Assembly (NCBI GenBank): GCA_963818475.1
Contig: CAWFSF010000006.1
Location: forward strand, 224,001-288,000
Direction: 5' to 3'
Source: Nitrospirota bacterium
GTDB lineage: Bacteria; Nitrospirota; UBA9217
Length of the DNA stretch: 64,000 bases
The number at the start of each line of letters is the position of its first letter. Within the stretch, counting starts at the first letter, position 1. The notes under the pieces are model-generated. The model was not told where the DNA came from. It worked only from the letters and a program-made list of their open reading frames with translations, and made no database searches. Position numbers and translations under genes: made by a program. This document shows, piece after piece, positions 9,253-49,706 of this stretch.

Positions 9253-9328
9253 GGGCCGGTAGCTCAGTTGGTAGAGCACCGCCCTTTTAAGGCGGGTGTC
9301 CTGGGTTCGAGTCCCAGCCGGCTCACCA
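9253..9328 (+). tRNA. tRNA-Lys(TTT)
   Basis: Cloverleaf, anticodon arm ccgcc-cTTTTaa-ggcgg, GGTTCGAGTCC, CCA end. Confidence 0.97.
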
Positions 9329-9418: not shown

Positions 9419-9496
9419 GTCCCCATCGTCTAGTCCGGCCCAGGACACCGCCCTTTCACGGCGATAACGCGGGTTCGAATCCCGCTGGGGACGCCA
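9419..9496 (+). tRNA. tRNA-Glu(TTC); integration site
   Basis: Cloverleaf, anticodon loop ctTTCac, GGTTCGAATCC, CCA end; 3' half repeated twice downstream. Confidence 0.97.
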
Positions 9497-9519
9497 TTCA
9501 AATTCAAAGAGTTAGCTAA

Positions 9520-9700
9520 TCAGCTAGCTCTTTTTATTTGCCCCAACGTAGCCAAAACGTAGCCACTCTCCTTAGCATCCAAGACCTTCACCGCTTCACT
9601 CAGATTTTCCGGAGTAAGATGGCAGTACCGGACAGTCATTCTCAGATCCTTGTGGCCCAGGAGATCCTTGACTGTGTTGATATCGACGCCCTCCTGGACC
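9520..9700 (-). pseudogene. Tyrosine integrase C-terminal remnant
   Basis: GVDINTVKDLLGHKDLRMTVRY contains the LLGH...Y catalytic motif; the rest of the gene is absent. Confidence 0.85.
9547..9564 (+). repeat. Putative integrase arm-type site, copy 1
   Basis: CGTAGCCAAAACGTAGCC, identical at 13437-13454. Confidence 0.7.
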
Positions 9701-9873
9701 ACCGTCACAACAACGTTTTCGCATTTCCCTTGCCCGTTCCTTAAAAATGCGTTATTCTCGCATTGATTGTTTGAGAAAATAGCTTCTATAATCGAGAAGG
9801 CACTTTTGAAAAGTTCCCTACTCACTAATAAACCTCCCCCTCTTTTTTTCAAGAAATTAGAAAAGGTAGATTT

Positions 9874-11253
9874 ATGAATACTCATATTGAAAAATTAAAA
9901 ATATTTATGGCCTCTCCTGATGATTTGCAGGAAGAGAGAAAAGTCTTTGGTGAGGTTGTTGAGGCAATAAACCGTAGCAGGGGTAGCGCAGAAGGATTTC
10001 ACCTGGATGCAATAATATGGGAGAAATATGCTTATCCCGAAGCAGATACTCCACAAGCTATTGTGAATAGGGTTTTGGAAGATGCATCGTTGGTTATTGT
10101 TGCCTTTTGGAACAAATTTGGAGCACCAACAACCAATTTCCCATCTGGTACGATGGAAGAGTTTTCTTTAGCATACGAGAAACGTAATAAGACAGGAAAG
10201 CCATCAATAAAAATCTATTTTAGATTGCCTGAGTCACCCACGACTTTGGCGCAAAATGAAGAGATTCGAAAAATACTTGAATTTAAAGAGTCAATCAAGG
10301 ACAAAGCTCTTTATAAAGAATACACTTCAGCTCAAGCATTCAAAGACTTATTGCATGAGCACATAAATGCATGGCTTTCAAATGAAAAGCAAATAACAGG
10401 AGCTGTAACGGATCCAACCGCAGTAGGCGTTGCAGATCCGGATCCTGTCTGCGTCAGTAAATTAATTGGAGACTATGTAAGGGATCTAGAAAAAAAATAT
10501 GACAGGGAGAAAACCGAAAGAAGATTTTTTGGCCTAAAAAAGCTCGATTATGTGCTTGGAGAATTTAACGAGCAAAATTTAACAGTAGTAGCGGGCGAAG
10601 CTTCCAGCGGGAAAACGACATTACTTGTAACTGCTGCAAACATAGTTGCTACAGACAAAACGGTTTTATTTATATCACCGAGGTTAAATAAAAAAGAGAT
10701 TGTAGGACGACTTATCTCAAATTCATCAGTGGTGGCGTTAAATCGATTAAAAAGTGGAAATTTACAAGATCAAGATTGGACTTCATTCTCGAATGCAGCC
10801 GGAAGATTACACGAAAAGGAGATTTACATTGATGATCATTATGAACTGTCAATTCCTTATATACGCAAACTTATTTCAAAAATAATGGCAGCTCATGGTG
10901 TGCAGTTGGTAATTATTGATGGTCTTAACTACATTCTAAATGAAGATGGCAGGGTAGGCCAATCATTGAGAGTCCTGTCGCGTGAATTTAATCTTCCGAT
11001 AATCGGTGCACTTGATATTGACCTTATCTCATTGCGTGCTAAAGCGATGTCTCGCGATAAACGGCCTTGCTTACGAGATTTAGATACATTCGGTGATCTA
11101 AGATCCGAATCGGACGTGGTGATTTTTTCATTCAGGGATGTAGACGTTATTGATAATGACGAATTAATTGTGGCTAAGAACAACAATGGACCTATTGGAG
11201 CTATAAAAGTTAAGTTTTTGTCAGAATGCAATAAATTTGAAGAATTAAACTAG
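9874..11253 (+). CDS. DUF4062-like domain fused to a degenerate DnaB-like helicase C-terminal domain
   Basis: N-term KIFMASPDDLQEER...FWNKFGAPT..SGTMEEF; C-term AGEASSGKTT, IYIDD, LSREFNLPII, DKRPCLRDL, IVAKNNNGPIG. Confidence 0.8.
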   Translation: MNTHIEKLKIFMASPDDLQEERKVFGEVVEAINRSRGSAEGFHLDAIIWEKYAYPEADTPQAIVNRVLEDASLVIVAFWNKFGAPTTNFPSGTMEEFSLAYEKRNKTGKPSIKIYFRLPESPTTLAQNEEIRKILEFKESIKDKALYKEYTSAQAFKDLLHEHINAWLSNEKQITGAVTDPTAVGVADPDPVCVSKLIGDYVRDLEKKYDREKTERRFFGLKKLDYVLGEFNEQNLTVVAGEASSGKTTLLVTAANIVATDKTVLFISPRLNKKEIVGRLISNSSVVALNRLKSGNLQDQDWTSFSNAAGRLHEKEIYIDDHYELSIPYIRKLISKIMAAHGVQLVIIDGLNYILNEDGRVGQSLRVLSREFNLPIIGALDIDLISLRAKAMSRDKRPCLRDLDTFGDLRSESDVVIFSFRDVDVIDNDELIVAKNNNGPIGAIKVKFLSECNKFEELN

Positions 11254-11551
11254 ACCTGGAGTTTCTATTACACAATCAGCCTTTGAATGTAATGCGATAC
11301 CATGCTGTGGTGAGAATTAGCGATGCCTACGTAAACTATTTTAGAACTTTCTGGAAAGAAATTTCATCTACGAAATTGCCGGTCCCAGACAAAGCGTAGT
11401 GTATCCTAATGATAATATGGGGAAAAGTGGCTTTAATGCTAGGCTGAAAGGTTCCACTTGACACAATCTTGACGATGGTGTATTAATTAAGTAGAAAACA
11501 CATGGGGAAGCCTGATAAATTCCTGAGTAAATTTAAAGTTTATAAAGGAAT

Positions 11552-13372
11552 TTGGATCGCTTCCCCTTTTTTTCGTCTATGTATCTTATACCTGATAAAA
11601 AATGGAATCTAACCGGTAATGAACCAGAACAATCTAAGCTATTCTTCGAATTGTGGCTGGAAAAAGTTGGTTTTGATTCTCATTTTACCTACGAGTTACC
11701 TCTTCATTCCTGCTATCAGCTGTTGAGAAATTTACAAAATATAATTCCGCTTGTAAAACAAAAGACAATTTCGCCTGAAAACATTACAGACATTATCGAA
11801 GAGATTCTCAATAGACTAGAGGGAAATATATGGCTCAATAAGTTTTACCCTAATGAAATTCAACATATCAAGACGGTACTTACTGAGGCAAAGACATCAT
11901 CCTTATATAAGGATATAACAATACAAAATAAACTTGAATTAATTCTCGAAGCCTTCCTCAATACCCTCCAAAAAGACAACATCCAGCTAAAGCAGTTGAG
12001 AGCAGTTTGTGATTTGGCTCAATCGAAACAAACTTATACAACGATTGAAAAAAATATCGATGAATTTCTGACCGACTTAATCCACGCTGGTCATTCGAAA
12101 TTATATTTGCATAAATGGGTAGTACGTGAAATTATCGAGCATCAAAAAGACCTTCTTGGTCAAAATTCTGTTGAAAAGCTCGCCGGCGCTCGTTTTTTGG
12201 GATCAATATCTACAAAATCATATAGCGTTTTGCTCAAGACCTCTGCAAATGCCAGAATTCAATCTACAGGTAATATTAAATTTGTTGAAAATAAAGAAGA
12301 CATCCCAGAAAAATTCCTTACTTTAAATTTGCCAAGTGTTAATAGTTCAACATCTAGATATGTTATTGTTGAGGTGGGAAACTCTTTAGATGTTTATGCG
12401 GCTTTTGAAGAGGCTGTAAATATTCTTACTCGGTATCTTTCTTCTGTCAGATTTCAGAAATTATCTTTTACTTCACCGGAGATATCCAGTAGCGGGATTG
12501 TGTTAGATTTATCTTCAGATACGGCGATTCAAATCGAGAATGTACCAAAATTAATTTCCCGATCAATTTTTAGCGCAGATAAATTTTACTCTATTGAAGC
12601 TAAGTCTGGGAAAAATCAAAAAACTTTTGACGCAATAGACAAGGTGCTTTACTGGTTTGAAATAGCACAAAAATCACCGGCGGAGTTAAAATTTATTAGT
12701 TTATGGACAGCACTAGAGTTTTTGTTTTCGGTCCCAGGATATAAAACTATTGACGGAATAGTTTCTTATTTACCCCCTTATTTTGGACTTGCCTATGCAA
12801 GGTCAGTTTTGAAAGATTTTGATAGGCATGTAGAGTTTGCTAATATTATATCGCCAGGAAAAATCTCAAGTGACTTAATGAAATATTGCAGCAATAAAGA
12901 CAAGAGAATGCATCCGGACTACACTAAAATGCTGTCTACATGTTGTGACGATGAAACGATAGCAGATTCTTTAAGTATACATCCAATTTTAAAAAGAAAA
13001 TTTTATAAGGTAAGGCGCCTCAATCCATCTTTCAAAACGGGCAACAGATTTACTTTGCTGAGCGATCTTGATTCTATTGAGTGCGACCTGATATTAGATG
13101 TTAAGAGATTCTATAGAACCAGAAATATGCTCGTTCATGGAGCCGAAATACAGGATCGTAATTTAGACAGAATTCTTAAAAGGATGGAGTATATGATGTC
13201 ATTTATCATAGATAAGCTTGCTGATGCTTATTATTACAACCCTAACCATTCACTTACGGCCCTACATGAAGTGTTTTATTCTAGCTATCAGTTCTATAAG
13301 AAGCGAATTGATGAAGGTAAGACTGATTTTGGAGGTACCGTTTTTCCGCGCTTATTATATAGTAAACACTAG
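11552..13372 (+). CDS. Large protein with C-terminal HEPN (ApeA-like) RNase domain
   Basis: FISLWTALEFL helix and RNMLVH (Rx4H) motif at 13121-13138; alternative ATG start at 11579. Confidence 0.7.
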   Translation: MDRFPFFSSMYLIPDKKWNLTGNEPEQSKLFFELWLEKVGFDSHFTYELPLHSCYQLLRNLQNIIPLVKQKTISPENITDIIEEILNRLEGNIWLNKFYPNEIQHIKTVLTEAKTSSLYKDITIQNKLELILEAFLNTLQKDNIQLKQLRAVCDLAQSKQTYTTIEKNIDEFLTDLIHAGHSKLYLHKWVVREIIEHQKDLLGQNSVEKLAGARFLGSISTKSYSVLLKTSANARIQSTGNIKFVENKEDIPEKFLTLNLPSVNSSTSRYVIVEVGNSLDVYAAFEEAVNILTRYLSSVRFQKLSFTSPEISSSGIVLDLSSDTAIQIENVPKLISRSIFSADKFYSIEAKSGKNQKTFDAIDKVLYWFEIAQKSPAELKFISLWTALEFLFSVPGYKTIDGIVSYLPPYFGLAYARSVLKDFDRHVEFANIISPGKISSDLMKYCSNKDKRMHPDYTKMLSTCCDDETIADSLSIHPILKRKFYKVRRLNPSFKTGNRFTLLSDLDSIECDLILDVKRFYRTRNMLVHGAEIQDRNLDRILKRMEYMMSFIIDKLADAYYYNPNHSLTALHEVFYSSYQFYKKRIDEGKTDFGGTVFPRLLYSKH

Positions 13373-13436
13373 AATTGTAGCCACAACCTCTGATAATGAA
13401 TAGGCATAAGTCACACGCTTCAGCTTTAGCTGAGAG

Positions 13437-13454
13437 CGTAGCCAAAACGTAGCC
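13437..13454 (+). repeat. Putative integrase arm-type site, copy 2
   Basis: Same 18-mer as 9547-9564. Confidence 0.7.
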
Positions 13455-13582
13455 GAAATTGACTTATAGGGCATAAGAGGGTAGAAAATAATGAAAGACC
13501 TGAAGGGGATATCCGTTTGAAAGTAGATAAATTCGATAAAACACAGGTAAGAGGCCCACTTACGAAAATTGATCGTTTGTGA

Positions 13583-13625
13583 CTTTCACGCGATAACGCG
13601 GGTTCGAATCCCGCTGGGGACGCCA
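13583..13625 (+). repeat. attR1: duplicated 3' half of tRNA-Glu (1-nt deletion)
   Basis: ctttcacgcgataacgcgggttcgaatcccgctggggacgcca. Confidence 0.95.
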
Positions 13626-13761
13626 TTAAAAAGTAAAAGAATCAGAACCTTTACGGGCCTGGTTCTTTTTATTTTTGGTACACAAGGTGGGCTCCGGGTG
13701 AAACCTGGGGCTTTTTCTTTTGGCTTGCAATATATCGGTATATGATATATATTGATATCCG

Positions 13762-14052
13762 ATGATACGGAACATAACGAGCAAGACGGCGCAGGATATC
13801 TATGACGGGGTAAACAGTCGTCATGCACGGAAGATCCCCACGGAGTTACACCGGAAAGCGCAGCGGCTCTTTGATCAGATCAACGCTGCCGTGGTGGTGG
13901 AAACCTTGAAAGCACCGCCCGGAAACAGGCTGGAGAGGTTGAAAGGCAATTGGGAAGGGTTCTGGAGTGTTCGGATAAATGACCAGTGGCGGATCATTTT
14001 CCGATGGGAAGATGCCGACGCCCTGGACGTGGATATTGTGGATTACCATTAA
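13762..14052 (+). CDS. higB: HigB/RelE-family toxin (plasmid maintenance killer type)
   Basis: PPGNRLERLKG..GFWSVRINDQWRIIFRW..VDIVDYH. Confidence 0.92.
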   Translation: MIRNITSKTAQDIYDGVNSRHARKIPTELHRKAQRLFDQINAAVVVETLKAPPGNRLERLKGNWEGFWSVRINDQWRIIFRWEDADALDVDIVDYH

Positions 14053-14065
14053 GGAGGTAGAGTAT

Positions 14066-14356
14066 ATGTTACCGAAAAAGAGACCGCCGACGCATCCGGG
14101 CGAGATGCTGCTGAAAGAGTTTCTGGAGCCGATGGGCATGACTCAGGTTGAGCTTGCAAAGCATATAGGCTGGACGTGGGCCAGGCTGAACGAGATCGTC
14201 AACGGCAGGCGCGGAGTAAGTGCGTCGTCAGCCCTTGCGCTCGGTGAGGCGTTTGGGACCGGGCCGGAATTCTGGCTGAACCTGCAGAGGGATTGGGACC
14301 TGTGGCACGCCTTGCGCAAGCATGAGCCTGTGCGGGCGCTCAAGAAGGCGAGTTGA
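14066..14356 (+). CDS. higA: HigA-family antitoxin
   Basis: PTHPGEMLLKEFLEP, NEIVNGRRGVS, PEFWLNLQ; RBS AAGGAGG. Confidence 0.92.
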   Translation: MLPKKRPPTHPGEMLLKEFLEPMGMTQVELAKHIGWTWARLNEIVNGRRGVSASSALALGEAFGTGPEFWLNLQRDWDLWHALRKHEPVRALKKAS

Positions 14357-14641: not shown

Positions 14642-17042
14642 ATGTCCGATAAGAAATCACTTCAGCAAGCTATTGCAAAAGAAGAAGAGCGTCTTTCCAA
14701 ATTGGACAGAGAAAGGGAGCAGACGCTATTAAGAATCACTGATTTCAGACAAAAGCTTGCGTCGCTGGAAGCAGTATGCGCCGGGTCGAAAAAATTTTCC
14801 TCTACGAGAACACCTCTTGAAAAAGTGACGCTGTTTCGCTCGCTGTTTCGCGGTAGGGAGGATGTTTTTCCGAAGCTCTGGGCAAGCCGTGCCGGCAAAA
14901 AAGGCTACTCTCCTGCCTGCACGAACGACTGGATGACCGGAATCTGCGGAAAGACGCGCAAACCGCCGCTCAAATGTAGTGATTGCTCCAATCGCAAGTT
15001 CCTTCCGGTGACTGATCAGGTCATCACTGACCATCTTCAAGGGCGTCATGTCATCGGCGTCTACCCCATGCTCCCGGACGACACCTGCTGGTTTCTCGCC
15101 GCCGACTTCGATAAGGAATCATGGATTGACGATATCAGCGCATTACGTGAAACCTGTTCTAATTTAAAAATACCCGTGGCTGTCGAACGATCGCGGTCAG
15201 GAAATGGAGCTCATGCCTGGCTCTTCTTTACCGAACCTGTTCCGGCCACGACTGCACGGACTTTGGGATGTTTTTTGATCACGGAAACGATGAGCCGGAG
15301 ACATCAACTCAGCATGGAGTCCTATGACCGTTTGTTCCCCAGTCAGGATACTCTGGTCCAAGGCCGGTTTCGGGAATCTGATCGCTGCCGCTTCAGCAGG
15401 AGCCACGTCAAAAAGGCAATTCGGTTTTTCTCGATGAACACTTGACTCCTTACGAAGATCAATGGACATATCTTGCAGCGATCGGGCGGATGATCGCCGG
15501 AGGTGGTTCAACGTATTGCATCTGAGGCTATACGTCTTGATACCGTGATAGGGGTGCAACGAGATATCAGCCAGGATGGAGACGACCTTACTCCCTGGAG
15601 CCGGTTGCCGTCGCGAAAAACACCGAAAGGGAAGATCACCGGAAAGTTTCCTTCAGAAACATATTGTGTCTTCGCACAACGTCTTTTCATCGAAAAAAAG
15701 GATTTACCTTCGCCTTTTCTGACGCGCATCAAACAATTGGCTGCATTTCAGAATCCAATGTTCTACGAAAAGCAGAACTTGCGCCTTTCAACTGCCCGAA
15801 TCCCGCGAGTGATCTCCTGCTATGAAGAACATCCTGAGCATATCGCCGTCCCGAGAGGCTGTCTTGAAGGTCTTCGGCAACTCTTTGCAGAACATGACGT
15901 CAAGCTTCTGCTCGATGACAAGCGCATTTCCCCCGCTGGACCATCGTATACGTTCCATGGAACATTGAGAGAAAAGCAGCATGAGGCCATCGACCGGATT
16001 CTCGAACACGACCTCGGGGTCCTCTCGGCGCCGCCGGGATTTGGCAAGACCGTTATCGGCGCGTATCTTATTGCAAAACGAGGCACCAGCACGCTTGTGC
16101 TCGTTCATCGGAAGGAGCTTCTGGATCAATGGGTCGCGCGACTTTCCTTGTTTCTTGGGATTGATCCGAAAGAAATCGGCAGGATCGGGGCAGGCAAAGA
16201 ACAAACCGAACGGGATATTGGATGTCGCCATGATCCAGAGTCTGGTCCGGAAGGATGAAGTCAACGATATCGTTGACGGCTATGGTCAGGTTATTGTTGA
16301 TGAGTGCCATCATCTGCCGGCTGTTTCTTTTGAGCGAGTTCTGAACGAGATCAAAGCACGATATGTTGTCGGCTTGACCGCAACACCCTATCGGCGAGAC
16401 GGGCACCAGCCGATCATTCACATGCAGTGCGGACCTGTCCGTTTTTCCGTGCATCCGAGAAGCCAGGAGGCAAGAACTCAGTTCAAACACAAATTAATCT
16501 GTAAAACTACGAATTTCAGTGTGCACGATCCCGATGCATCGATTCAGGAAATATTTGCCGCCCTTGTTGCAAATAAGAAGCGGAATGCTCTTATTCTTGC
16601 TGATGTCCGGCAGGCCATCCAGGAGGGACGGTCGCCGGTGCTTCTGACCGATCGGAAAGAACATCTGGATATACTTGCGGATGAGTTGCGAAGCGATGTA
16701 CAGCATCTCATCGTACTCAGCGGCAGGCTGTCTGCCAAAGAACGGCGTGAAACAATGAAGAGGCTTGCAGCAATACCCGATAATGAAGTACGCCTTATCG
16801 CGGCAACGGGCCGTTACCTTGGTGAAGGTTTCGACGATCCGCGACTCGATACGCTCTTCCTTGCCATGCCTTTTTCCTGGAAGGGAACGATTGTACAGTA
16901 TGCGGGACGGATTCACCGGGAACATCCGGGAAAGCTGGAAGTCCGGGTGCACGACTATGTCGACGCCAATGTACCCAAGCTTCTGCGAATGCAAAAAAAA
17001 AGATTGCGAGGTTTTCGGGATATCGGATATATGGCAGATTGA
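14642..17042 (+). CDS. Archaeo-eukaryotic primase-like (TOTE-type) domain fused to a DEAD/DEAH SF2 helicase; frameshifted
   Basis: CWFLAADFD, ERSRSGNGAHAW, SYDRLFP; APPGFGKT, DECHH, GLTATP, GEGFDDPRLD, QYAGRIHR across three ORFs. Confidence 0.8.
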
Positions 17043-17235: not shown

Positions 17236-17279
17236 CTTTCACGGCGATAACGCGGGTTCGAATCCCGCTGGGGACGCCA
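17236..17279 (+). repeat. attR2: duplicated 3' half of tRNA-Glu
   Basis: ctttcacggcgataacgcgggttcgaatcccgctggggacgcca, identical to 9453-9496. Confidence 0.95.
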
Positions 17280-17300
17280 TTAAAAAAAAAGAATCAGACC

Positions 17301-19213
17301 GTTCGCAGTAACAACTGATTATCTCGCGGGTTCAAGTCCCGCCCAAGGAGTTGTCCGTACACCTTGGTAGCACGAGGGAGCGGCGTCTGAGCAATCAGAG
17401 GTCGTGAGTTCCCAAACGGCAAAGCTACAGGCCGCAGCGAAAGCGAACCTACACGTAGCCTCGTAACTTATTCGGAGATGCCGACCTTGTGGTCAAATGG
17501 GGAAGGCCGATGCGCGCTGATTCAGACAACGGAATCGATCTGTGCGATCTCCCGGGGTAGCAGGGGCGGCATGCAGCGGAAGATAAGCAGTCCAGTGCTG
17601 GAGACCCCATACAGTGATGTTAGAGGAACATCAACCGGTGCGTATAAGGAAACGAAAACGCACTGGGCTGTATCGGGAGTCGGAGGGGTCCATAGTATCG
17701 TTTGAAGGTATGGGACAACATAACCCTGCCCAAGAAAAGGGACCCTGCTTTGTTCACGCAACCGAAGGAGAGAGGATGAGGGGATTGCAGAGATGCTAAC
17801 AACCCCAGATACAATCAGGACACTCCAGAGGAAGCTCTACCGTAAGGCCAAGCAAGAACCGGCCTACCGCTTTTACGCGCTCTACGACAAGATACACCGG
17901 GCCGACATCCTCAGTCACGCCTACCATCTTGTCAGGGCCAACAAAGGAAGCGCCGGCATCGACGGCGTCACCTTCGAGGCCATAGAGACCGGAGAAGGGG
18001 TAATCGCCTTTTTGGCGGAGCTGCAAGAAGCACTGAAGAGCAAGACCTATGCACCAAACCCTGTAAAGCGCGTCATGATCCCCAAAGGAGACGGCACAGA
18101 GCGTCCCTTGGGAATCCCGACCATTAGGGACAGGGTGGCCCAGATGGCCGTAAAACTGGTCATCGAACCGATATTTGAAGCGGATTTTATAGACACCTCA
18201 TACGGATTCAGACCCAAGAAGTCGGCCCATGATGCAATCGAAGACATATCGTATGCCCTTAACTGCGGTTATACGGAAGTCATCGACGCCGATGTGTCCA
18301 GGTACTTCGACACCATTCCCCATGCCAAACTCATGGCCGTGGTCGCCGAGCGCATCGTTGACAGTGCGATTCTGCACATTATCCAGATGTGGCTCAAGGC
18401 CCCGGTTATGGAAGTGGACAAGGACGGAACGAAGCGCAACATCGGCGGCGGCAAGGCAAACACCAAAGGAACACCGCAGGGCGGTGTCATCTCGCCGCTC
18501 CTGGCCAATCTCTATCTGCACCTGTTAGATAGGATATGGCATAAGAAGAAGCTTCAGTATAGGCTCGAAGCGCGTCTTGTCCGGTATGCCGACGATTTTG
18601 TCGTGCTGTGCAGAAAGGGAACTGAGCAGCCGATGGCGGTTGTGCGCCGGGTGCTCGAACGACTGGGACTTGTACTCAATGAGAACAAGACCCGCATGGT
18701 GAACGCCAAGCAAGAAGGCTTCAACTTCCTTGGATTTGAACTTCGTATGGGGAAAAGTCGGAGAACGGGCAACCTTTACCCCCTTATACAACCGTCACGA
18801 AAAGCCCTGAAGAAGATCAAAGACAGCGTTACCGCTCTTACACACAGGCGGATGACGCCGAAGCCGCTTACTATGATAATCGAAGATATCAATACCGCCC
18901 TCCGGGGCTGGGTCGGGTACTTTCATTACCGCAATAGCAGCAAGGCGTTCAATCGTCTCAAGTTTCATGTGGAAGCGCGAGTGCGCACGCATCTGCGAAA
19001 GCGGCATAAGATCAAAAGCAGGGCAGCGGGGTTTACCAGGTTCACCAACAGGTCTTTGTACGAGAAGTATGGGCTCTATAAAGTGCCGACGACAGCGGGC
19101 TGGCTGAAGGCGCATGCCTTGCGGTGAAGAACATCGGAAAGCCGTGTGCGGGAAAACTGCATGCACGGTTTGATGAGGGAGGGCTGGTCAATACGACCAG
19201 CTCTCTACTCTAC
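17301..19213 (+). mobile_element. Group II intron, copy 1 (1913 nt)
   Basis: 5' GTTCG, EBS1 loop GGTCAA (17491-17496), RT ORF, D5 AAGCCGTGTGCGGGAAAACTGCATGCACGGTTTG, D6 ending CTACTCTAC. Boundaries fixed by four copies and an empty allele near 13640. Confidence 0.95.
17793..19127 (+). CDS. ltrA: Group II intron reverse transcriptase/maturase (no endonuclease domain)
   Basis: RPLGIPTIRDR, SYGFRP, GTPQGGVISPLLAN, RYADD, FLGF, X domain RGWVGYF. Confidence 0.97.
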   Translation: MLTTPDTIRTLQRKLYRKAKQEPAYRFYALYDKIHRADILSHAYHLVRANKGSAGIDGVTFEAIETGEGVIAFLAELQEALKSKTYAPNPVKRVMIPKGDGTERPLGIPTIRDRVAQMAVKLVIEPIFEADFIDTSYGFRPKKSAHDAIEDISYALNCGYTEVIDADVSRYFDTIPHAKLMAVVAERIVDSAILHIIQMWLKAPVMEVDKDGTKRNIGGGKANTKGTPQGGVISPLLANLYLHLLDRIWHKKKLQYRLEARLVRYADDFVVLCRKGTEQPMAVVRRVLERLGLVLNENKTRMVNAKQEGFNFLGFELRMGKSRRTGNLYPLIQPSRKALKKIKDSVTALTHRRMTPKPLTMIIEDINTALRGWVGYFHYRNSSKAFNRLKFHVEARVRTHLRKRHKIKSRAAGFTRFTNRSLYEKYGLYKVPTTAGWLKAHALR

Positions 19214-19334
19214 CTTTACGGGACTGGTTCTTTTTATTTTTGGTACACAAATGGTACACAGAATCAGGATGCAACGCATGTTCGATTTTAATCGTCACTC
19301 CGGGTCAAATTCCCCGCCGCTTGCGGTAGAGTTA

Positions 19335-20469: not shown

Positions 20470-20601
20470 TTTGCCACTTTAAACCGTCGCTTGTGGTCGT
20501 TTAACAAAATTGCAAATAAAGCAGGTGATCATGATGACTTCACGTTTTTCACATCGTCGCCATATCGCTACGACAGACGCATCGACCCTGAGGGCAAAGA
20601 A

Positions 20602-22477
20602 ATGATGCTACTTATCCGCCTGTCCTACATCTTCTTTATCTTTGTCAACTTGATGGTCCTGTTCCGATCCTCCGCCTCCGCCCAGTCGACCGAAGAGAAA
20701 GACTTTCTCCTGATGTACTTCAAGGAAGAGGAACTGGTCGTGGAAGCGCCGACGCGGGCAAGAAAATCCCTGGCCCAGACCGCGGAGAACGTGTCCGTGG
20801 TCACGGCCGACGAGATCAGGTTCATGAACGCCCATACAGCAGCCGAGGTGCTGAACACGGTGACGGGCGTGCAGGTCTTCCTGACGGGAGGTCCCGGCAG
20901 CAGCGCGACGGCGTTCATCCAGGGCTCGGGGAGCCGGCATGTGGCAGTCTTCATCGACGGCGTCCCGCTGAACAACCTTTCCGATAACGCGGCCGAGCTC
21001 GGGTCGCTCCCGGTCCAGAATATCGAGAAGATCGAGATCATCAAGGGACCGGCGTCGTCCGCCTGGGGATCAGCTCTCGGCGGTGTGATCAACATCATTA
21101 CCAAGGCGGGGCAGGACGAGGGGTTCGGCGGCGTGCTGTCGGCTTCATCAGGAAAGCATGATACGGGTGACTTCCGGGCCGAGGCATCGGGTAAAAAGGT
21201 GGGCGTGGGCTATTACCTTACTGCCGGCCGACTGCAAACCGACGGCTTTCGGCCACACAACGACTTCTCGGGGAACAATGCCTACGCGAAGCTGAGCTAT
21301 GATATCACGGGCGCTACGTCAGTAATTGCCACGGTGAGCTATGACAAGGTCGCGCGAGGGACTTGCTGAACTGCCCGATTTCGGCATCTTCGTGAACGAC
21401 GACATCAAGGCCGTGCGGTCCACCGTAACGTTTCGATCGTCCCTCTCCGAGAACACTGACCTGCATTTTACTGCCTGGCACCTGCGCCAGCACAGCGACT
21501 TCAGCAACATGCTCATCTCTTCGGGAGCGGAACTTTCAAAGGACCGTTATCTCGATGATGGATACGGCGGGAGCCTCAAGCTGACATGGAAAAGGCAGCA
21601 TCACAACATCGTTCTCGGCGGCGACTATGACTCCAGGATGTTGGACTCGAACGCCATCGCCGATAACAGGCAGGGGATCGATAAACAGGCTGCTTTTGTA
21701 AATGATACGATGTCTTTCGGCAGCCTGACTATCACCCCGGGCCTGCGGTATGATAAAACAGACACGAACGGTGATTTCACGAGCCCGAGCCTCGGAATGA
21801 TCTACCGGATCACGGAGACCACCTTACTGCGTGCGTATGCTGCCCGGGGATTCAGTGTGCCGGCGCTTGCGGGCACCTATGGAGATAATCTCTTTCATGT
21901 TTCCAATCCCGATCTGAAGATGGAAAATGTCAAGTCCTACCAGATAGGCGCGGAAACCACTGTTGAGAAGTATCTCTGGGTCAAAGTGTCGGGATTCAGG
22001 CACGATCTTGACGATGTTCTCGAGAACGTGGCGCTTTCCCCTATATCGTTCATTACGTTGAACACCGGCAGGGAAAGACGGGAAGGGTTGGAGGTCGAGC
22101 TCCGAACAGCTCCTGTCTACCATACAACGCTTAATGCCGGCGCGTCGTTCATCAGCGCGACGGACAGGGACACGGGCCAGACGATCAAGAGCGTGGCACA
22201 AAGGACCTATGACATAGGCTTGCAGTACGATGGAGACTCGTTCAAGGCGCTGGTGAAGGGGCATTATATCTACTGGAACACGGACAAGTTCTTTGAAGGG
22301 AAGTACGACGATTTTATCGTGGATGCCCATATTATGAAGACCCTGTATACGCGGAATGAGCACTCGCTTGAAGCCTTTGCCGATGTTCACAATCTCTTCG
22401 ATGACGAGCAATATCCAGCGGGTATATATAAGAACCCCGGGAGATGGTTCGAGGCAGGGGTTAGATATGTTTTTTGA
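20602..22477 (+). CDS. TonB-dependent receptor (frameshift near 21355)
   Basis: Plug motifs VFIDGVPLN and IEKIEIIKGPASSAWGSALGGVINIITK; barrel ends NPGRWFEAGVRYVF. Confidence 0.9.
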
Positions 22478-42832: not shown

Positions 42833-44745
42833 GTTCGCAGTAACAACTGATTATCTCGCGGGTTCAAGTCCCGCCCAAGGAGTTGTCCGTACACCTTGGT
42901 AGCACGAGGGAGCGGCGTCTGAGCAATCAGAGGTCGTGAGTTCCCAAACGGCAAAGCTACAGGCCGCAGCGAAAGCGAACCTACACGTAGCCTCGTAACT
43001 TATTCGGAGATGCCGACCTTGTGGTCAAATGGGGAAGGCCGATGCGCGCTGATTCAGACAACGGAATCGATCTGTGCGATCTCCCGGGGTAGCAGGGGCG
43101 GCATGTAGCGGAAGATAAGCAGTCCAGTGCTGGAGACCCCATACAGTGATGTTAGAGGAACATCAACCGGTGCGTATAAGGAAACGAAAACGCACTGGGC
43201 TGTATCGGGAGTCGGAGGGGTCCATAGTATCGTTTGAAGGTATGGGACAACATAACCCTGCCCGAGAAAAGGGACCCTGCTTTGTTCACGCAACCGAAGG
43301 AGAGAGGATGAGGGGATTGCAGAGATGCTAACAACCCCAGATACAATCAGGACACTCCAGAGGAAGCTCTACCGTAAGGCCAAGCAAGAACCGGCCTACC
43401 GCTTTTACGCGCTCTACGACAAGATACACCGGGCCGACATCCTCAGTCACGCCTACCATCTTGTCAGGGCCAACAAAGGAAGCGCCGGCATCGACGGCGT
43501 CACCTTCGAGGCCATAGAGACCGGAGAAGGGGTAATCGCCTTTTTGGCGGAGCTGCAAGAAGCACTGAAGAGCAAGACCTATGCACCAAACCCTGTAAAG
43601 CGCGTCATGATCCCCAAAGGAGACGGCACAGAGCGTCCCTTGGGAATCCCGACCATTAGGGACAGGGTGGCCCAGATGGCCGTAAAACTGGTCATCGAAC
43701 CGATATTTGAAGCGGATTTTATAGACACCTCATACGGATTCAGACCCAAGAAGTCGGCCCATGATGCAATCGAAGACATATCGTATGCCCTTAACTGCGG
43801 TTATACGGAAGTCATCGACGCCGATGTGTCCAGGTACTTCGACACCATTCCCCATGCCAAACTCATGGCCGTGGTCGCCGAGCGCATCGTTGACAGTGCG
43901 ATTCTGCACATTATCCAGATGTGGCTCAAGGCCCCGGTTATGGAAGTGGACAAGGACGGAACGAAGCGCAACATCGGCGGCGGCAAGGCAAACACCAAAG
44001 GAACACCGCAGGGCGGTGTCATCTCGCCGCTCCTGGCCAATCTCTATCTGCACCTGTTAGATAGGATATGGCATAAGAAGAAGCTTCAGTATAGGCTCGA
44101 AGCGCGTCTTGTCCGGTATGCCGACGATTTTGTCGTGCTGTGCAGAAAGGGAACTGAGCAGCCGATGGCGGTTGTGCGCCGGGTGCTCGAACGACTGGGA
44201 CTTGTACTCAATGAGAACAAGACCCGCATGGTGAACGCCAAGCAAGAAGGCTTCAACTTCCTTGGATTTGAACTTCGTATGGGGAAAAGTCGGAGAACGG
44301 GCAACCTTTACCCCCTTATACAACCGTCACGAAAAGCCCTGAAGAAGATCAAAGACAGCGTTACCGCTCTTACACACAGGCGGATGACGCCGAAGCCGCT
44401 TACTATGATAATCGAAGATATCAATACCGCCCTCCGGGGCTGGGTCGGGTACTTTCATTACCGCAATAGCAGCAAGGCGTTCAATCGTCTCAAGTTTCAT
44501 GTGGAAGCGCGAGTGCGCACGCATCTGCGAAAGCGGCATAAGATCAAAAGCAGGGCAGCGGGGTTTACCAGGTTCACCAACAGGTCTTTGTACGAGAAGT
44601 ATGGGCTCTATAAAGTGCCGACGACAGCGGGCTGGCTGAAGGCGCATGCCTTGCGGTGAAGAACATCGGAAAGCCGTGTGCGGGAAAACTGCATGCACGG
44701 TTTGATGAGGGAGGGCTGGTCAATACGACCAGCTCTCTACTCTAC
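42833..44745 (+). mobile_element. Group II intron, copy 2
   Basis: Same as copy 1 apart from two SNPs seen; junction AAGGACCTGACC|CTAAC. Confidence 0.95.
43325..44659 (+). CDS. ltrA: Group II intron RT/maturase
   Basis: Protein identical to 17793-19127. Confidence 0.97.
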   Translation: MLTTPDTIRTLQRKLYRKAKQEPAYRFYALYDKIHRADILSHAYHLVRANKGSAGIDGVTFEAIETGEGVIAFLAELQEALKSKTYAPNPVKRVMIPKGDGTERPLGIPTIRDRVAQMAVKLVIEPIFEADFIDTSYGFRPKKSAHDAIEDISYALNCGYTEVIDADVSRYFDTIPHAKLMAVVAERIVDSAILHIIQMWLKAPVMEVDKDGTKRNIGGGKANTKGTPQGGVISPLLANLYLHLLDRIWHKKKLQYRLEARLVRYADDFVVLCRKGTEQPMAVVRRVLERLGLVLNENKTRMVNAKQEGFNFLGFELRMGKSRRTGNLYPLIQPSRKALKKIKDSVTALTHRRMTPKPLTMIIEDINTALRGWVGYFHYRNSSKAFNRLKFHVEARVRTHLRKRHKIKSRAAGFTRFTNRSLYEKYGLYKVPTTAGWLKAHALR

Positions 44746-44959: not shown

Positions 44960-46872
44960 GTTCGCAGTAACAACTGATTATCTCGCGGGTTCAAGTCCCG
45001 CCCAAGGAGTTGTCCGTACACCTTGGTAGCACGAGGGAGCGGCGTCTGAGCAATCAGAGGTCGTGAGTTCCCAAACGGCAAAGCTACAGGCCGCAGCGAA
45101 AGCGAACCTACACGTAGCCTCGTAACTTATTCGGAGATGCCGACCTTGTGGTCAAATGGGGAAGGCCGATGCGCGCTGATTCAGACAACGGAATCGATCT
45201 GTGCGATCTCCCGGGGTAGCAGGGGCGGCATGTAGCGGAAGATAAGCAGTCCAGTGCTGGAGACCCCATACAGTGATGTTAGAGGAACATCAACCGGTGC
45301 GTATAAGGAAACGAAAACGCACTGGGCTGTATCGGGAGTCGGAGGGGTCCATAGTATCGTTTGAAGGTATGGGACAACATAACCCTGCCCGAGAAAAGGG
45401 ACCCTGCTTTGTTCACGCAACCGAAGGAGAGAGGATGAGGGGATTGCAGAGATGCTAACAACCCCAGATACAATCAGGACACTCCAGAGGAAGCTCTACC
45501 GTAAGGCCAAGCAAGAACCGGCCTACCGCTTTTACGCGCTCTACGACAAGATACACCGGGCCGACATCCTCAGTCACGCCTACCATCTTGTCAGGGCCAA
45601 CAAAGGAAGCGCCGGCATCGACGGCGTCACCTTCGAGGCCATAGAGACCGGAGAAGGGGTAATCGCCTTTTTGGCGGAGCTGCAAGAAGCACTGAAGAGC
45701 AAGACCTATGCACCAAACCCTGTAAAGCGCGTCATGATCCCCAAAGGAGACGGCACAGAGCGTCCCTTGGGAATCCCGACCATTAGGGACAGGGTGGCCC
45801 AGATGGCCGTAAAACTGGTCATCGAACCGATATTTGAAGCGGATTTTATAGACACCTCATACGGATTCAGACCCAAGAAGTCGGCCCATGATGCAATCGA
45901 AGACATATCGTATGCCCTTAACTGCGGTTATACGGAAGTCATCGACGCCGATGTGTCCAGGTACTTCGACACCATTCCCCATGCCAAACTCATGGCCGTG
46001 GTCGCCGAGCGCATCGTTGACAGTGCGATTCTGCACATTATCCAGATGTGGCTCAAGGCCCCGGTTATGGAAGTGGACAAGGACGGAACGAAGCGCAACA
46101 TCGGCGGCGGCAAGGCAAACACCAAAGGAACACCGCAGGGCGGTGTCATCTCGCCGCTCCTGGCCAATCTCTATCTGCACCTGTTAGATAGGATATGGCA
46201 TAAGAAGAAGCTTCAGTATAGGCTCGAAGCGCGTCTTGTCCGGTATGCCGACGATTTTGTCGTGCTGTGCAGAAAGGGAACTGAGCAGCCGATGGCGGTT
46301 GTGCGCCGGGTGCTCGAACGACTGGGACTTGTACTCAATGAGAACAAGACCCGCATGGTGAACGCCAAGCAAGAAGGCTTCAACTTCCTTGGATTTGAAC
46401 TTCGTATGGGGAAAAGTCGGAGAACGGGCAACCTTTACCCCCTTATACAACCGTCACGAAAAGCCCTGAAGAAGATCAAAGACAGCGTTACCGCTCTTAC
46501 ACACAGGCGGATGACGCCGAAGCCGCTTACTATGATAATCGAAGATATCAATACCGCCCTCCGGGGCTGGGTCGGGTACTTTCATTACCGCAATAGCAGC
46601 AAGGCGTTCAATCGTCTCAAGTTTCATGTGGAAGCGCGAGTGCGCACGCATCTGCGAAAGCGGCATAAGATCAAAAGCAGGGCAGCGGGGTTTACCAGGT
46701 TCACCAACAGGTCTTTGTACGAGAAGTATGGGCTCTATAAAGTGCCGACGACAGCGGGCTGGCTGAAGGCGCATGCCTTGCGGTGAAGAACATCGGAAAG
46801 CCGTGTGCGGGAAAACTGCATGCACGGTTTGATGAGGGAGGGCTGGTCAATACGACCAGCTCTCTACTCTAC
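44960..46872 (+). mobile_element. Group II intron, copy 3
   Basis: Junction TTCAAGTCTGACC|CCAAAG. Confidence 0.95.
45452..46786 (+). CDS. ltrA: Group II intron RT/maturase
   Basis: Identical protein. Confidence 0.97.
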   Translation: MLTTPDTIRTLQRKLYRKAKQEPAYRFYALYDKIHRADILSHAYHLVRANKGSAGIDGVTFEAIETGEGVIAFLAELQEALKSKTYAPNPVKRVMIPKGDGTERPLGIPTIRDRVAQMAVKLVIEPIFEADFIDTSYGFRPKKSAHDAIEDISYALNCGYTEVIDADVSRYFDTIPHAKLMAVVAERIVDSAILHIIQMWLKAPVMEVDKDGTKRNIGGGKANTKGTPQGGVISPLLANLYLHLLDRIWHKKKLQYRLEARLVRYADDFVVLCRKGTEQPMAVVRRVLERLGLVLNENKTRMVNAKQEGFNFLGFELRMGKSRRTGNLYPLIQPSRKALKKIKDSVTALTHRRMTPKPLTMIIEDINTALRGWVGYFHYRNSSKAFNRLKFHVEARVRTHLRKRHKIKSRAAGFTRFTNRSLYEKYGLYKVPTTAGWLKAHALR

Positions 46873-47793: not shown

Positions 47794-49706
47794 GTTCGCA
47801 GTAACAACTGATTATCTCGCGGGTTCAAGTCCCGCCCAAGGAGTTGTCCGTACACCTTGGTAGCACGAGGGAGCGGCGTCTGAGCAATCAGAGGTCGTGA
47901 GTTCCCAAACGGCAAAGCTACAGGCCGCAGCGAAAGCGAACCTACACGTAGCCTCGTAACTTATTCGGAGATGCCGACCTTGTGGTCAAATGGGGAAGGC
48001 CGATGCGCGCTGATTCAGACAACGGAATCGATCTGTGCGATCTCCCGGGGTAGCAGGGGCGGCATGTAGCGGAAGATAAGCAGTCCAGTGCTGGAGACCC
48101 CATACAGTGATGTTAGAGGAACATCAACCGGTGCGTATAAGGAAACGAAAACGCACTGGGCTGTATCGGGAGTCGGAGGGGTCCATAGTATCGTTTGAAG
48201 GTATGGGACAACATAACCCTGCCCGAGAAAAGGGACCCTGCTTTGTTCACGCAACCGAAGGAGAGAGGATGAGGGGATTGCAGAGATGCTAACAACCCCA
48301 GATACAATCAGGACACTCCAGAGGAAGCTCTACCGTAAGGCCAAGCAAGAACCGGCCTACCGCTTTTACGCGCTCTACGACAAGATACACCGGGCCGACA
48401 TCCTCAGTCACGCCTACCATCTTGTCAGGGCCAACAAAGGAAGCGCCGGCATCGACGGCGTCACCTTCGAGGCCATAGAGACCGGAGAAGGGGTAATCGC
48501 CTTTTTGGCGGAGCTGCAAGAAGCACTGAAGAGCAAGACCTATGCACCAAACCCTGTAAAGCGCGTCATGATCCCCAAAGGAGACGGCACAGAGCGTCCC
48601 TTGGGAATCCCGACCATTAGGGACAGGGTGGCCCAGATGGCCGTAAAACTGGTCATCGAACCGATATTTGAAGCGGATTTTATAGACACCTCATACGGAT
48701 TCAGACCCAAGAAGTCGGCCCATGATGCAATCGAAGACATATCGTATGCCCTTAACTGCGGTTATACGGAAGTCATCGACGCCGATGTGTCCAGGTACTT
48801 CGACACCATTCCCCATGCCAAACTCATGGCCGTGGTCGCCGAGCGCATCGTTGACAGTGCGATTCTGCACATTATCCAGATGTGGCTCAAGGCCCCGGTT
48901 ATGGAAGTGGACAAGGACGGAACGAAGCGCAACATCGGCGGCGGCAAGGCAAACACCAAAGGAACACCGCAGGGCGGTGTCATCTCGCCGCTCCTGGCCA
49001 ATCTCTATCTGCACCTGTTAGATAGGATATGGCATAAGAAGAAGCTTCAGTATAGGCTCGAAGCGCGTCTTGTCCGGTATGCCGACGATTTTGTCGTGCT
49101 GTGCAGAAAGGGAACTGAGCAGCCGATGGCGGTTGTGCGCCGGGTGCTCGAACGACTGGGACTTGTACTCAATGAGAACAAGACCCGCATGGTGAACGCC
49201 AAGCAAGAAGGCTTCAACTTCCTTGGATTTGAACTTCGTATGGGGAAAAGTCGGAGAACGGGCAACCTTTACCCCCTTATACAACCGTCACGAAAAGCCC
49301 TGAAGAAGATCAAAGACAGCGTTACCGCTCTTACACACAGGCGGATGACGCCGAAGCCGCTTACTATGATAATCGAAGATATCAATACCGCCCTCCGGGG
49401 CTGGGTCGGGTACTTTCATTACCGCAATAGCAGCAAGGCGTTCAATCGTCTCAAGTTTCATGTGGAAGCGCGAGTGCGCACGCATCTGCGAAAGCGGCAT
49501 AAGATCAAAAGCAGGGCAGCGGGGTTTACCAGGTTCACCAACAGGTCTTTGTACGAGAAGTATGGGCTCTATAAAGTGCCGACGACAGCGGGCTGGCTGA
49601 AGGCGCATGCCTTGCGGTGAAGAACATCGGAAAGCCGTGTGCGGGAAAACTGCATGCACGGTTTGATGAGGGAGGGCTGGTCAATACGACCAGCTCTCTA
49701 CTCTAC
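47794..49706 (+). mobile_element. Group II intron, copy 4
   Basis: Junction GAAGATTTGACC|CCCG. Confidence 0.95.
48286..49620 (+). CDS. ltrA: Group II intron RT/maturase
   Basis: Identical protein. Confidence 0.97.
   Translation: MLTTPDTIRTLQRKLYRKAKQEPAYRFYALYDKIHRADILSHAYHLVRANKGSAGIDGVTFEAIETGEGVIAFLAELQEALKSKTYAPNPVKRVMIPKGDGTERPLGIPTIRDRVAQMAVKLVIEPIFEADFIDTSYGFRPKKSAHDAIEDISYALNCGYTEVIDADVSRYFDTIPHAKLMAVVAERIVDSAILHIIQMWLKAPVMEVDKDGTKRNIGGGKANTKGTPQGGVISPLLANLYLHLLDRIWHKKKLQYRLEARLVRYADDFVVLCRKGTEQPMAVVRRVLERLGLVLNENKTRMVNAKQEGFNFLGFELRMGKSRRTGNLYPLIQPSRKALKKIKDSVTALTHRRMTPKPLTMIIEDINTALRGWVGYFHYRNSSKAFNRLKFHVEARVRTHLRKRHKIKSRAAGFTRFTNRSLYEKYGLYKVPTTAGWLKAHALR

Follow-up and report, generated by a model that had tools for sequence, protein, structure and literature searches.

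What might a DnaB-like helicase module do in a protein in which the N-terminal domain of the helicase has been replaced by a candidate immune effector? The question is raised by a 459-aa protein encoded in a 64,000-nucleotide stretch of DNA from a Nitrospirota bacterium of the lineage UBA9217 (assembly GCA_963818475.1, contig CAWFSF010000006.1, positions 224,001 to 288,000; the whole stretch is called the window here, and its own numbering is used). The gene joins a TIR-like NIR/DUF4062 domain (the N-domain) to a catalytically degenerate DnaB C-terminal domain (DnaB_C), and the protein and its relatives are referred to below as fusions. A preliminary description, made from the letters of the window alone, had seen in this gene a candidate antiphage sensor, with the pseudo-helicase as bait for phage replication proteins or single-stranded DNA (ssDNA) and oligomerisation as the activating event. 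The reading preferred here, to which we assign a probability of about 0.6, is that of an abortive-infection NADase encoded by a single gene and kept under the control of a DnaB-like ring that binds ATP without hydrolysing it. The coordinates of all features are collected in Table 1.

Domain architecture and the degenerate DnaB module

The Pfam family DnaB_C (PF03796) covered residues 220-457 of the fusion protein (E 1.1e-43, 149.9 bits, cut-off 27), while no match to the DnaB N-terminal domain PF00772 was found by Pfam anywhere in the 459 residues. Fifteen NCBIfam DnaB models also matched, every one far below its cut-off (best 144.6 vs 385.25 bits), and the NCBIfam model of an SPI-7-type island helicase reached E 2.2e-28. 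In Foldseek the model of the C-terminal domain matched the C-terminal domain of E. coli DnaB (6kza_B; E 7.1e-20, TM score 0.71, root-mean-square deviation (rmsd) 2.1, 243 columns), and the linker helix was modelled at residues 194-208 in a whole-protein AlphaFold2 (AF2) prediction.

A residue-by-residue alignment to Geobacillus DnaB (2r6a, 2vye; E about 1e-27) was used to read the motif substitutions, and all of those quoted in the preliminary description were present. SLEM has become SPRL (FISPRL, 266-271), with Arg270 at the catalytic-Glu position; DYLQ has become DGLN (IIDGLNY, 347-353); LRESGSIEQDAD has become LDTFGDLRSESD (403-414), with Asp404 at the position of the DNA-loop Arg; and KQRNG has become KNNNG (AKNNNG, 434-439), where Asn437 takes the place of the Arg finger. 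For all three motifs (catalytic Glu, Arg finger and DNA-binding loop) the names and roles are those of the DnaB literature, the loop being the part that contacts DNA in DnaB structures.

The same changes recur across the family. When 26 non-identical fusion sequences (fragments included) were tallied against 114 comparison DnaB_C proteins of 400-500 aa, the Walker A Lys was kept in all 25 fusions that cover the position and the Walker B Asp likewise in 25 of 25 (112 and 114 of the 114 comparison proteins, respectively). The catalytic Glu, present in 109 of the 114 comparison proteins, was found in none of the 26 fusions (R 19, K 3, D 2, H 1, G 1), so that a basic residue (R, K or H) stands there in 23 of 26. 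At the Arg-finger position, which is R in 109 of the 114, the fusions carry K 11, N 3, P 3, R 2, Y 2, T 2 and S 1 (n = 24). The DNA-loop Arg, kept in 105 of the 114, is Asp in 18 of 24 fusions, and the loop has a conserved acidic DLDxxGD pattern with Asp408 invariant in alignment A2. Five comparison sequences lack the Glu: one has a gap and four have Arg or Lys, three of these being TIR fusions and the other (P0071) a protein that keeps the DnaB N-terminal domain. The distant fusions are degenerate each in its own way: P0038 has SLDM but keeps AKHRYG, P0040 has SLGM and a Walker A motif without its Gly, and P0043 has SFDG. Because this pattern of kept and lost residues is family-wide, nucleotide binding by the module looks selected, and hydrolysis and DNA contact look abandoned. 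The degenerate state of the domain, which the preliminary description had noted for the one protein, thus extends to its relatives.

The host genome has a separate DnaB elsewhere with all motifs intact, which BLASTP aligned with residues 194-442 of the fusion, linker helix included, at 29% identity, starting from host residue 168. The frame of this host gene (L006:931-3009, G000:C6) is 692 aa long and continues beyond about residue 470 into an unrelated tail rich in Arg and Ala, suggesting that the 3' end of dnaB has lost its stop, carries a frameshift or was misassembled. A further protein, P0041 (573 aa), has two tandem DnaB_C domains and no N-domain (PF03796 in two stretches, E 9.5e-150); in its first copy SLEM is replaced by SMAQ and the Arg-finger motif is AKNKNG.

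At the N terminus, Pfam placed DUF4062 (PF13271) on residues 9-100 (E 4e-4, 21.0 bits, cut-off 24.7). The score was 24.5 bits in a whole-genome search and 24.8 bits when neighbours in frame were included, and close relatives of the N-domain exceeded the cut-off (L005 25.9, L021 32.4 and L023 32.6 bits). In PADLOC the model PDC-S60 matched at E 4.5e-33 (residues 8-209), but its profile was covered only from position 5 to position 207 of 906. In the whole-protein AF2 model the N-domain had a pLDDT of about 50-60, and it was therefore re-modelled alone with a broader alignment (mean pLDDT 84.8, pTM 0.79), which gave five beta-alpha units followed by a long 'stalk' helix at 153-176. The top solved Foldseek match of this model was the TIR domain of flax L6 (E 3e-4), and the next were further TIR domains of plant and bacterial origin, flavodoxin-like proteins and a nucleoside deoxyribosyltransferase. 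In VIA-align the Z score was 12.8 for TIRAP (rmsd 3.4, 140 aligned), 12.5 for the MAL TIR, 11.7 for the RPS4/RRS1 TIR, 11.6 for both TIR-STING and MilB, about 11 for deoxyribosyltransferases, 10.6 for the SARM1 TIR and 9.7 for ThsB. With TIR folds at the top of these searches and PF00772 absent, the DUF4062-like effector in place of the DnaB N-terminal domain, as first described from the sequence, is supported.

Glu96 was invariant in 21 of 21 aligned NIR domains, that of a canonical DUF4062-NACHT protein included, and in the AF2 model it starts the helix 92-107 that follows strand 73-78. S14, D17, E21, R22, L44, G83, S91 and T93 were also invariant in this alignment, and W49 and E50 nearly so. 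In the text available from three 2026 preprints (10.64898/2026.05.01.722283, 10.64898/2026.09.04.749371, 10.64898/2026.06.25.731849), which report the Swarozyc, Evangelion and Vulcan systems, DUF4062 is described as a TIR-like antiphage NADase with a catalytic Glu and variable, swappable sensor regions, its output being NAD+ depletion and abortive infection. The catalytic Glu published there is E97 in KpSwz, E98 in Vulcan and E103 in VstA; Glu96, in an SGTxEE motif, lies at a similar distance from the N terminus by comparison of positions rather than by alignment. By homology to the proteins tested in these preprints, we infer that the N-domain is a TIR-like NAD+ hydrolase.

The stalk helix and the linker helix are separated by a variable linker (177-190; mean pairwise identity 0.16). 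Mean pairwise identity was 0.67 in the NIR core and 0.42 in the C-terminal domain, with 48 of 145 and 21 of 250 columns invariant, respectively, which is the pattern that would be expected of a conserved effector joined to a diversifying sensor.

Three copies of residues 185-459 were modelled together and gave a self-association score of 0.54, the best of three controls reaching 0.00; this mark is reached by 20 of 30 proteins solved as one-chain pairs and by 1 of 23 solved single chains. Contact agreement between the runs was at least 84% and partner pLDDT at least 79, and at the interface the linker helix (186-209) packs against residues 265-337 of the adjacent copy. The model, with its controls, supports self-association through the DnaB linker helix, and to that extent agrees with the oligomerisation put forward in the preliminary description.

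Table 1. Positions of the fusion gene, its parts and surrounding features, in window numbering unless a contig is named
Feature	Position	Strand	Basis or remark
NIR/DUF4062-pseudo-DnaB_C fusion gene	9874..11253	+	ORF (open reading frame), 459 aa
Residues 1-176, TIR-like NIR/DUF4062 domain	9874..10401	+	AF2 N-domain model, fold searches, PDC-S60 match
Glu96 codon in PSGTMEEF, predicted catalytic Glu	10159..10161	+	invariance in alignment
Residues 191-209, counterpart of DnaB linker helix	10444..10500	+	BLASTP to host DnaB, models
Residues 210-459, DnaB C-terminal RecA-type domain, catalytically degenerate	10501..11250	+	PF03796, Foldseek
Walker A GEASSGKTT, residues 241-249, kept	10594..10620	+	G246, K247, T248 invariant in alignment A2
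Arg270 codon at catalytic-Glu position of SLEM	10681..10683	+	alignment to DnaB
Asp349 codon, Walker B Asp in IIDGLNY (347-353), kept	10918..10920	+	invariant in alignments
LDTFGDLRSESD, residues 403-414, altered DNA-binding loop (LRESGxIEQDAD counterpart)	11080..11115	+	alignment
Asn437 codon at Arg-finger position of KQRNG	11182..11184	+	alignment
Sigma-70-like promoter match TTGATT-18-TATAAT, 10/12, ~80 nt 5' of ATG	9763..9792	+	consensus only; 14 sites in region vs mean 13 in shuffled sequence, a single match not significant
tRNA-Lys(UUU), just upstream of tRNA-Glu	9253-9328		ARAGORN
tRNA-Glu(UUC), integration target	9419..9496	+	ARAGORN
50-nt direct repeat, left copy (tRNA-Glu 3' half), attL-like end of islet 1	9453..9502	+	repeat family D1 reference copy
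Tyrosine integrase remnant, 30 residues at profile C-terminal end	9520..9885	-	PF00589, E 5.6e-6, residues 63-92 vs 141-170 of 172
606-aa orphan ORF in islet 1	11552..13372	+	RNMLVH motif at 524-529
Second tRNA-Glu 3' half, islet 1 right/islet 2 left end	13582..13631	+	86% identity
HigB-like toxin and helix-turn-helix antitoxin pair, left end of islet 2	13762-14356	+	toxin E 2.5e-20
TOTE region, primase ORF then ResIII/Helicase_C helicase	14642-17042	+	primase AEP-TOTE, E 9.7e-76
Third tRNA-Glu 3' half, right end of islet 2	17236..17285	+	98% identity
Group II intron reverse transcriptase/maturase ORF, 444 aa, four copies	17793-19124, 43325-44656, 45452-46783, 48286-49617	+	identical Pfam scores: RVT_1 133 bits, GIIM 59.3 bits
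TonB-dependent receptor, split: Plug ORF, beta-barrel ORF	20491-22474 (20491-21366, 21341-22474)	+	
TIR_2-DnaB_C gene, locus L038	G143:C29:62116-63438		
TIR_2-DnaB_C gene, locus L039	G200:C12:76912-78231		

Relatives, sister proteins and genomic setting

A word-based search of 5.8 billion proteins returned 17 relatives or fragments of the same architecture (P0002-P0018; 39-62% identity), after which came ordinary DnaBs with the PF00772 N-domain. When the family profile was run with HMMER over 1.84 billion cluster representatives, 85,056 matches reached E 0.001 or better. Among the 150 listed, nearly all were DnaBs; six representatives covered both domains (P0008, P0001 and P0037, and the distant P0038, P0040 and P0043), and there were a few fragments. 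The fusion family is rare and comes mostly from Nitrospirota metagenome-assembled genomes and metagenomes. Of 401 sampled genomes of the phylum, at least four have the fusion (G000, G181, G329 and G397) and 30 matched some part of PDC-S60, 20 of the 32 matching places being examined; the PDC-S60 model matched none of five same-genus genomes (65-92% complete). Among IMG/VR viral contigs 19 pattern matches were obtained, none of them relatives. The 676 matches in phage records and the 1,406 in plasmid records were all below 60% identity; the 12 listed from phages (23-26%) were replicative helicases where annotated, and the 12 listed from plasmids (24-27%) were dnaB or replicative helicase genes, one being unannotated. 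At the sensitivity used, no member of the family was thus found in phage, plasmid or viral-contig collections. Residues 1-215 gave no match at E 0.001 or better to longer proteins (805-2295 aa) in a word-based search that is weak for this purpose.

The two halves of the protein also occur in other company. Elsewhere in the phylum, other members of this NIR subfamily are joined to NACHT, or else to unknown regions of 280-430 aa. The C-terminal ~700 positions of PDC-S60 were observed in ORFs of ~600-890 aa without an NIR match at L018, L019, L032 and L035 (genomes G399, G260, G338 and G237, respectively), and since this sensor region is found without an NIR N-domain it too appears modular. On the DnaB side, three of the DnaB matches of the HMMER scan (P0072, P0085 and P0128; 448-456 aa) were TIR_2-DnaB_C proteins, whose TIR matched the PADLOC ThsB model at E 1e-53 to 1e-60 with half of the model covered. 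All three have Lys or Arg at the catalytic-Glu position, and the Arg finger is lost in two of the three and Walker A degenerate in two of the three. Such genes were found in two of the 401 genomes, both of the family of the window genome and in low-GC, mobile-looking settings (Table 1; proteins of 448-467 aa, P0072, P0085 and P0128 included).

A FastTree tree of the C-terminal domain was built from 135 sequences, with five fragmentary fusions dropped (P0005, P0006, P0017, P0039 and P0042). The core fusion family was monophyletic (18 tips, support 1.0), with the midpoint root on its long branch, and a split with support 0.936 placed the three TIR_2-DnaB_C proteins on the side of 20 of the 21 fusion tips. 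As taxonomy labels are lacking for the comparison DnaBs, the tree speaks to these groupings and not to host versus phage origin or to a single fusion event. Because the degenerate DnaB module is paired with two different NAD-processing TIR-fold domains, the sequences argue that it may be a reusable control module.

The fusion gene is accessory and horizontally acquired, and it is organised as a lone gene. Nine distinct loci were compared, namely the window, L001, L002 (= L013, L014, L029), L003 (= L016, L027), L004, L005, L011, L012 and L015, and the flanking genes differed at each of them. The flanks held PDC-S01 at L001; a TIR protein, an Mrr nuclease and a DUF4062-NACHT protein at L002; PDC-S05/ORF6N amid housekeeping genes at L003; Schlafen-like and AbiE genes at L005, where the fusion gene itself is truncated; a fragment of a type IIG restriction enzyme and a NUDIX gene at L011; a methyltransferase and a radical-SAM gene at L015; and little except transposases and weak fragments at L004 and L012. 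At least one defence-associated Pfam or PADLOC match was therefore present in the flanks of seven of the nine loci (the window, L001, L002, L003, L005, L011 and L015), and no replication-module family matched among the scanned neighbours of the fusion loci, so that the homologues do not lie in replication modules there. It was also observed that L004 and L005 both lie between an HlyD-family gene and a major facilitator superfamily transporter, the former with a full fusion gene and an insertion sequence element and the latter with a 168-aa truncated N-domain remnant together with Schlafen-like and AbiEi/AbiEii genes; the site looks like a variable hotspot.

In the window the fusion gene lies in the first of two small islets, which are read as standing in tandem because the tRNA-Glu 3' half recurs at both of the downstream positions given in Table 1. 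Islet 1 is 4.1 kb long; apart from the integrase remnant, its only genes are the fusion and an orphan ORF of 606 aa, with neither a replication initiator nor a primase in its ORF list or Pfam matches. The GC content is 0.35-0.38 at 10-13 kb, as against about 0.6 in the flanks. With the tRNA-Glu repeats and the conflict genes of the adjoining islet 2 (HigB/HigA and the primase and helicase of a TOTE conflict system), this accords with the AT-rich, tRNA-integrated island of the preliminary description.

The same description had placed a HEPN gene beside the fusion. What stands of this is the RNMLVH motif of the 606-aa orphan and a set of weak leads: Atlas look-alikes bearing HEPN_Apea score 0.84-0.87, at lead level, and the Pfam match to HEPN_Swt1 is sub-threshold (E 0.028, 15.1 bits, cut-off 27.5, residues 519-552). 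PADLOC, NCBIfam and PHROGs gave no match, only the protein itself was found among the 5.8 billion, and tblastn gave no match at E <1 in five homologous loci. The orphan is possibly an Apea/Swt1-like HEPN protein, and is probably an independent cargo gene; without relatives and absent from the five homologous loci, it is not a conserved partner of the fusion.

Several further observations concern the islets and the DNA beyond them. An exact 18-nt direct repeat, CGTAGCCAAAACGTAGCC, lies at 9547-9564 and 13437-13454, just within the ends of islet 1, and a 39-nt repeat (97% identity) is found at 13647-13685, after the second tRNA-Glu copy, and at 19212-19250, after the first of the group II intron ORFs. 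The TOTE helicase falls into two overlapping ORFs, one (15503-16258) following a stop in the same frame and the other (15981-17042) in a different frame, and it appears to have been disrupted either by a stop plus a frameshift or by errors of assembly. An expression search for 9500-13700 listed no RNA dataset, and two DNA runs contained only 0.05 of its words.

A proposed mechanism and the alternatives to it

Under the preferred reading, the DnaB module, composed of the linker helix and the RecA-type domain, would still bind nucleotide through Lys247 and Asp349; it would no longer hydrolyse ATP or translocate on DNA, since other residues stand in for the catalytic Glu, the Arg finger and the DNA-loop Arg. 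Head-to-tail assembly through the linker helix would give a DnaB-like ring, with the NIR domains in the place of the N-terminal collar of the helicase and kept inactive. The ring would then be acted on by a signal from the phage, for which the most plausible candidate is a protein, such as a helicase loader or inhibitor, that normally grips the C-terminal tier of host DnaB; the geometry of ring or collar would change, and the NIR domains would pass into an active arrangement and deplete NAD+, so that the infected cell no longer supports the phage. The stoichiometry of the ring, the nature of the trigger and the geometry of activation are speculative.

A number of points weigh against this account. 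Any activity, binding or phage phenotype of the family members is putative, and the DUF4062 score of the fusion protein itself lies under the Pfam cut-off (21.0 vs 24.7 bits). Non-TIR flavodoxin-like folds (Rab GTPases, receiver domains, flavodoxins) reach Z 9-10 or E about 1e-3 against the N-domain model, and because unrelated folds score so high the fold evidence agrees with the sequence evidence but is not exclusive. Three copies are unlike the calibration of the self-association method, and as DnaB rings have been solved, the pass may only mirror likeness to, or memory of, those rings. A slow ATPase may persist, as one distant fusion with Asp at the catalytic-Glu position retains the Arg finger, and the distant fusions P0038, P0040 and P0043 fall outside the core in the FastTree trees of both the C-terminal domain and the N-domain. 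With only 29% identity to host DnaB, close mimicry of the host helicase surface is argued against. The seven defence-flanked loci of nine are an indication and not an enrichment test, there being no background control; several of the matches are to PADLOC 'candidate' (PDC) models only, at two of the nine loci (L004 and L012) there is hardly anything but transposases or a weak fragment, and the flanks of L003 are otherwise housekeeping.

How the ring would be triggered admits several answers. Possible, though somewhat doubtful, is the idea that the dead DnaB tier is an integrated decoy, phage loaders or DnaB inhibitors binding the look-alike ring and its distortion switching on the NADase. It would fit, because the surface of the linker helix and C-terminal domain is retained while catalysis is lost and the C-terminal domain diverges faster. 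The module might, on the other hand, not be bait at all, and this we consider unlikely: it would be an ATP-dependent oligomerisation scaffold or switch, like the NTPase of STAND/NLR proteins, or a reporter of ATP or dNTP, and the infection signal would be a change in the nucleotide pool or something sensed by the stalk/linker region. Invariant Walker motifs combined with lost hydrolysis residues fit a binder or switch, the basic residue in 23 of 26 fusions looks selected and not decayed, and both the NACHT fusions of the same NIR subfamily and the modelled self-association are in keeping with such a role; however, a C-terminal domain that diverges faster than the effector (0.42 vs 0.67) is more typical of an arms-race surface, and there is no separate sensor domain within the 459 aa. 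That the ring binds phage ssDNA or replication/recombination intermediates and so triggers the NADase, as has been proposed for Eva01, is improbable, although the domain is descended from an ssDNA translocase and the Evangelion preprint, in its available text, maps escapers to recombination genes and reports that Eva01 prefers recombination-like DNA. Here the DNA-contacting loop has been rewritten, with the Arg as Asp in 18 of 24 and the acidic DLDxxGD conserved, and the N-terminal collar and primase-binding domain are absent, which disfavours the ssDNA bait of the preliminary description.

The genomic setting bears on two other explanations. A two-gene system, implied in the preliminary description, in which the fusion acts with the adjacent 606-aa HEPN-like protein, would draw on the facts that the two are the only intact cargo of one 4.1-kb islet, that both are of low GC and that the neighbour has an Rx4H motif with weak HEPN leads. 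The partnership is nevertheless very improbable, since the neighbour stands alone among 5.8 billion proteins and has no tblastn match in the five homologous loci, the flanking genes differ at every locus examined and a gap of 298 nt separates the two genes. We give hardly any credence to a working replication helicase of the integrated element. DnaB-family helicases do occur on islands, plasmids and phages, the SPI-7-type NCBIfam model matches at E 2.2e-28, and tblastn finds phage and plasmid DnaBs; yet the NCBIfam DnaB scores are far below cut-off (for example 144.6 vs 385.25 bits), the DnaB N-terminal domain, catalytic Glu and Arg finger have been lost, the islet holds no initiator or primase, and the phage, plasmid and viral-contig collections contain no member.

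Relation to known systems and significance

The nearest known systems are Swarozyc (KpSwz), Evangelion (Eva01-04) and Vulcan, which, from the text available in the three preprints, likewise combine an N-terminal DUF4062/NIR domain, a Glu near position 97, a helical stalk and a C-terminal sensing or regulating region, and are likewise single genes in defence-rich or mobile contexts. Compared by description, their C-termini differ from that of the fusion: Swarozyc and Evangelion have an AUX region without recognisable domains and Vulcan has HEAT repeats, whereas the fusion has a DnaB linker helix and a RecA-type nucleotide-binding domain. The words 'DnaB' and 'helicase' do not occur in the main texts of these preprints, the figures and supplements of which may list the architecture. 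With PDC-S60, a name absent from the literature searched, the fusion lineages tested (P0011, P0038, P0040 and P0043) have the first ~200 profile positions (NIR and stalk) in common, while positions 208-906 are unmatched by the fusion protein. With DnaB itself (TIGR00665/PF00772 + PF03796) the fusion shares the linker helix, the C-terminal RecA fold, Walker A and B and the type of subunit contact modelled, but it is without the N-terminal primase-binding domain, has the catalytic Glu, Arg finger and DNA-loop Arg replaced and scores below the equivalog cut-offs.

Avs and NLR-like STAND proteins follow a common logic, in which an effector is joined to an NTP-binding oligomerisation module and activated by assembly, and NIR has been reported, in the source text available, as an Avs2 effector. 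In the fusion, however, a RecA/DnaB-class NTPase takes the place of the STAND one, and beside it stands neither a separate repeat domain nor a separate sensor domain. The ThsB-like TIR (Thoeris sensor) DnaB_C fusions have the same degenerate type of DnaB_C behind an NAD-processing TIR fold, their N-domain being a canonical TIR_2, unlike NIR. DnaB_C-only proteins have been computationally linked to type XI-like retron reverse transcriptases (mSystems 2026, PMC13712802); in the part of that paper available this is likewise an association with a defence-type module, but as separate ORFs beside the reverse transcriptase, in Bacteroidota and with no NADase fusion. That association is the nearest precedent, no NIR- or TIR-DnaB_C protein being described in the literature searched. 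The effector family and its modular logic are already known from the 2026 preprints; the DnaB_C variant is new to the literature searched.

It was not until 2026 that DUF4062/NIR NADases became known as a widespread immune effector, and the central question about them is what their sensor regions detect. For the fusion, the question of the trigger is directly testable, because the partners of DnaB are known (ATP, ssDNA, helicase loaders and primase) and the residue pattern narrows the candidates. If the module is a scaffold only, it would show that TIR-type effectors can be assembled by a RecA-class module instead of a STAND NTPase. If the decoy idea is true, the acidic loop and the basic residue at the catalytic-Glu position would be adaptations that lock ATP in and DNA out and leave protein ligands only, and bacteria would have, in this protein, an equivalent of the integrated-decoy domains of plant NLRs, possibly the first integrated decoy of the replication machinery. 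It would guard against helicase hijacking, a step that many phages cannot avoid, with a TIR NADase in the sister proteins. Since the degenerate DnaB module is found behind canonical TIR domains too, prokaryotic immunity may possess a 'pseudo-helicase' module that can be reused for sensing or assembly.

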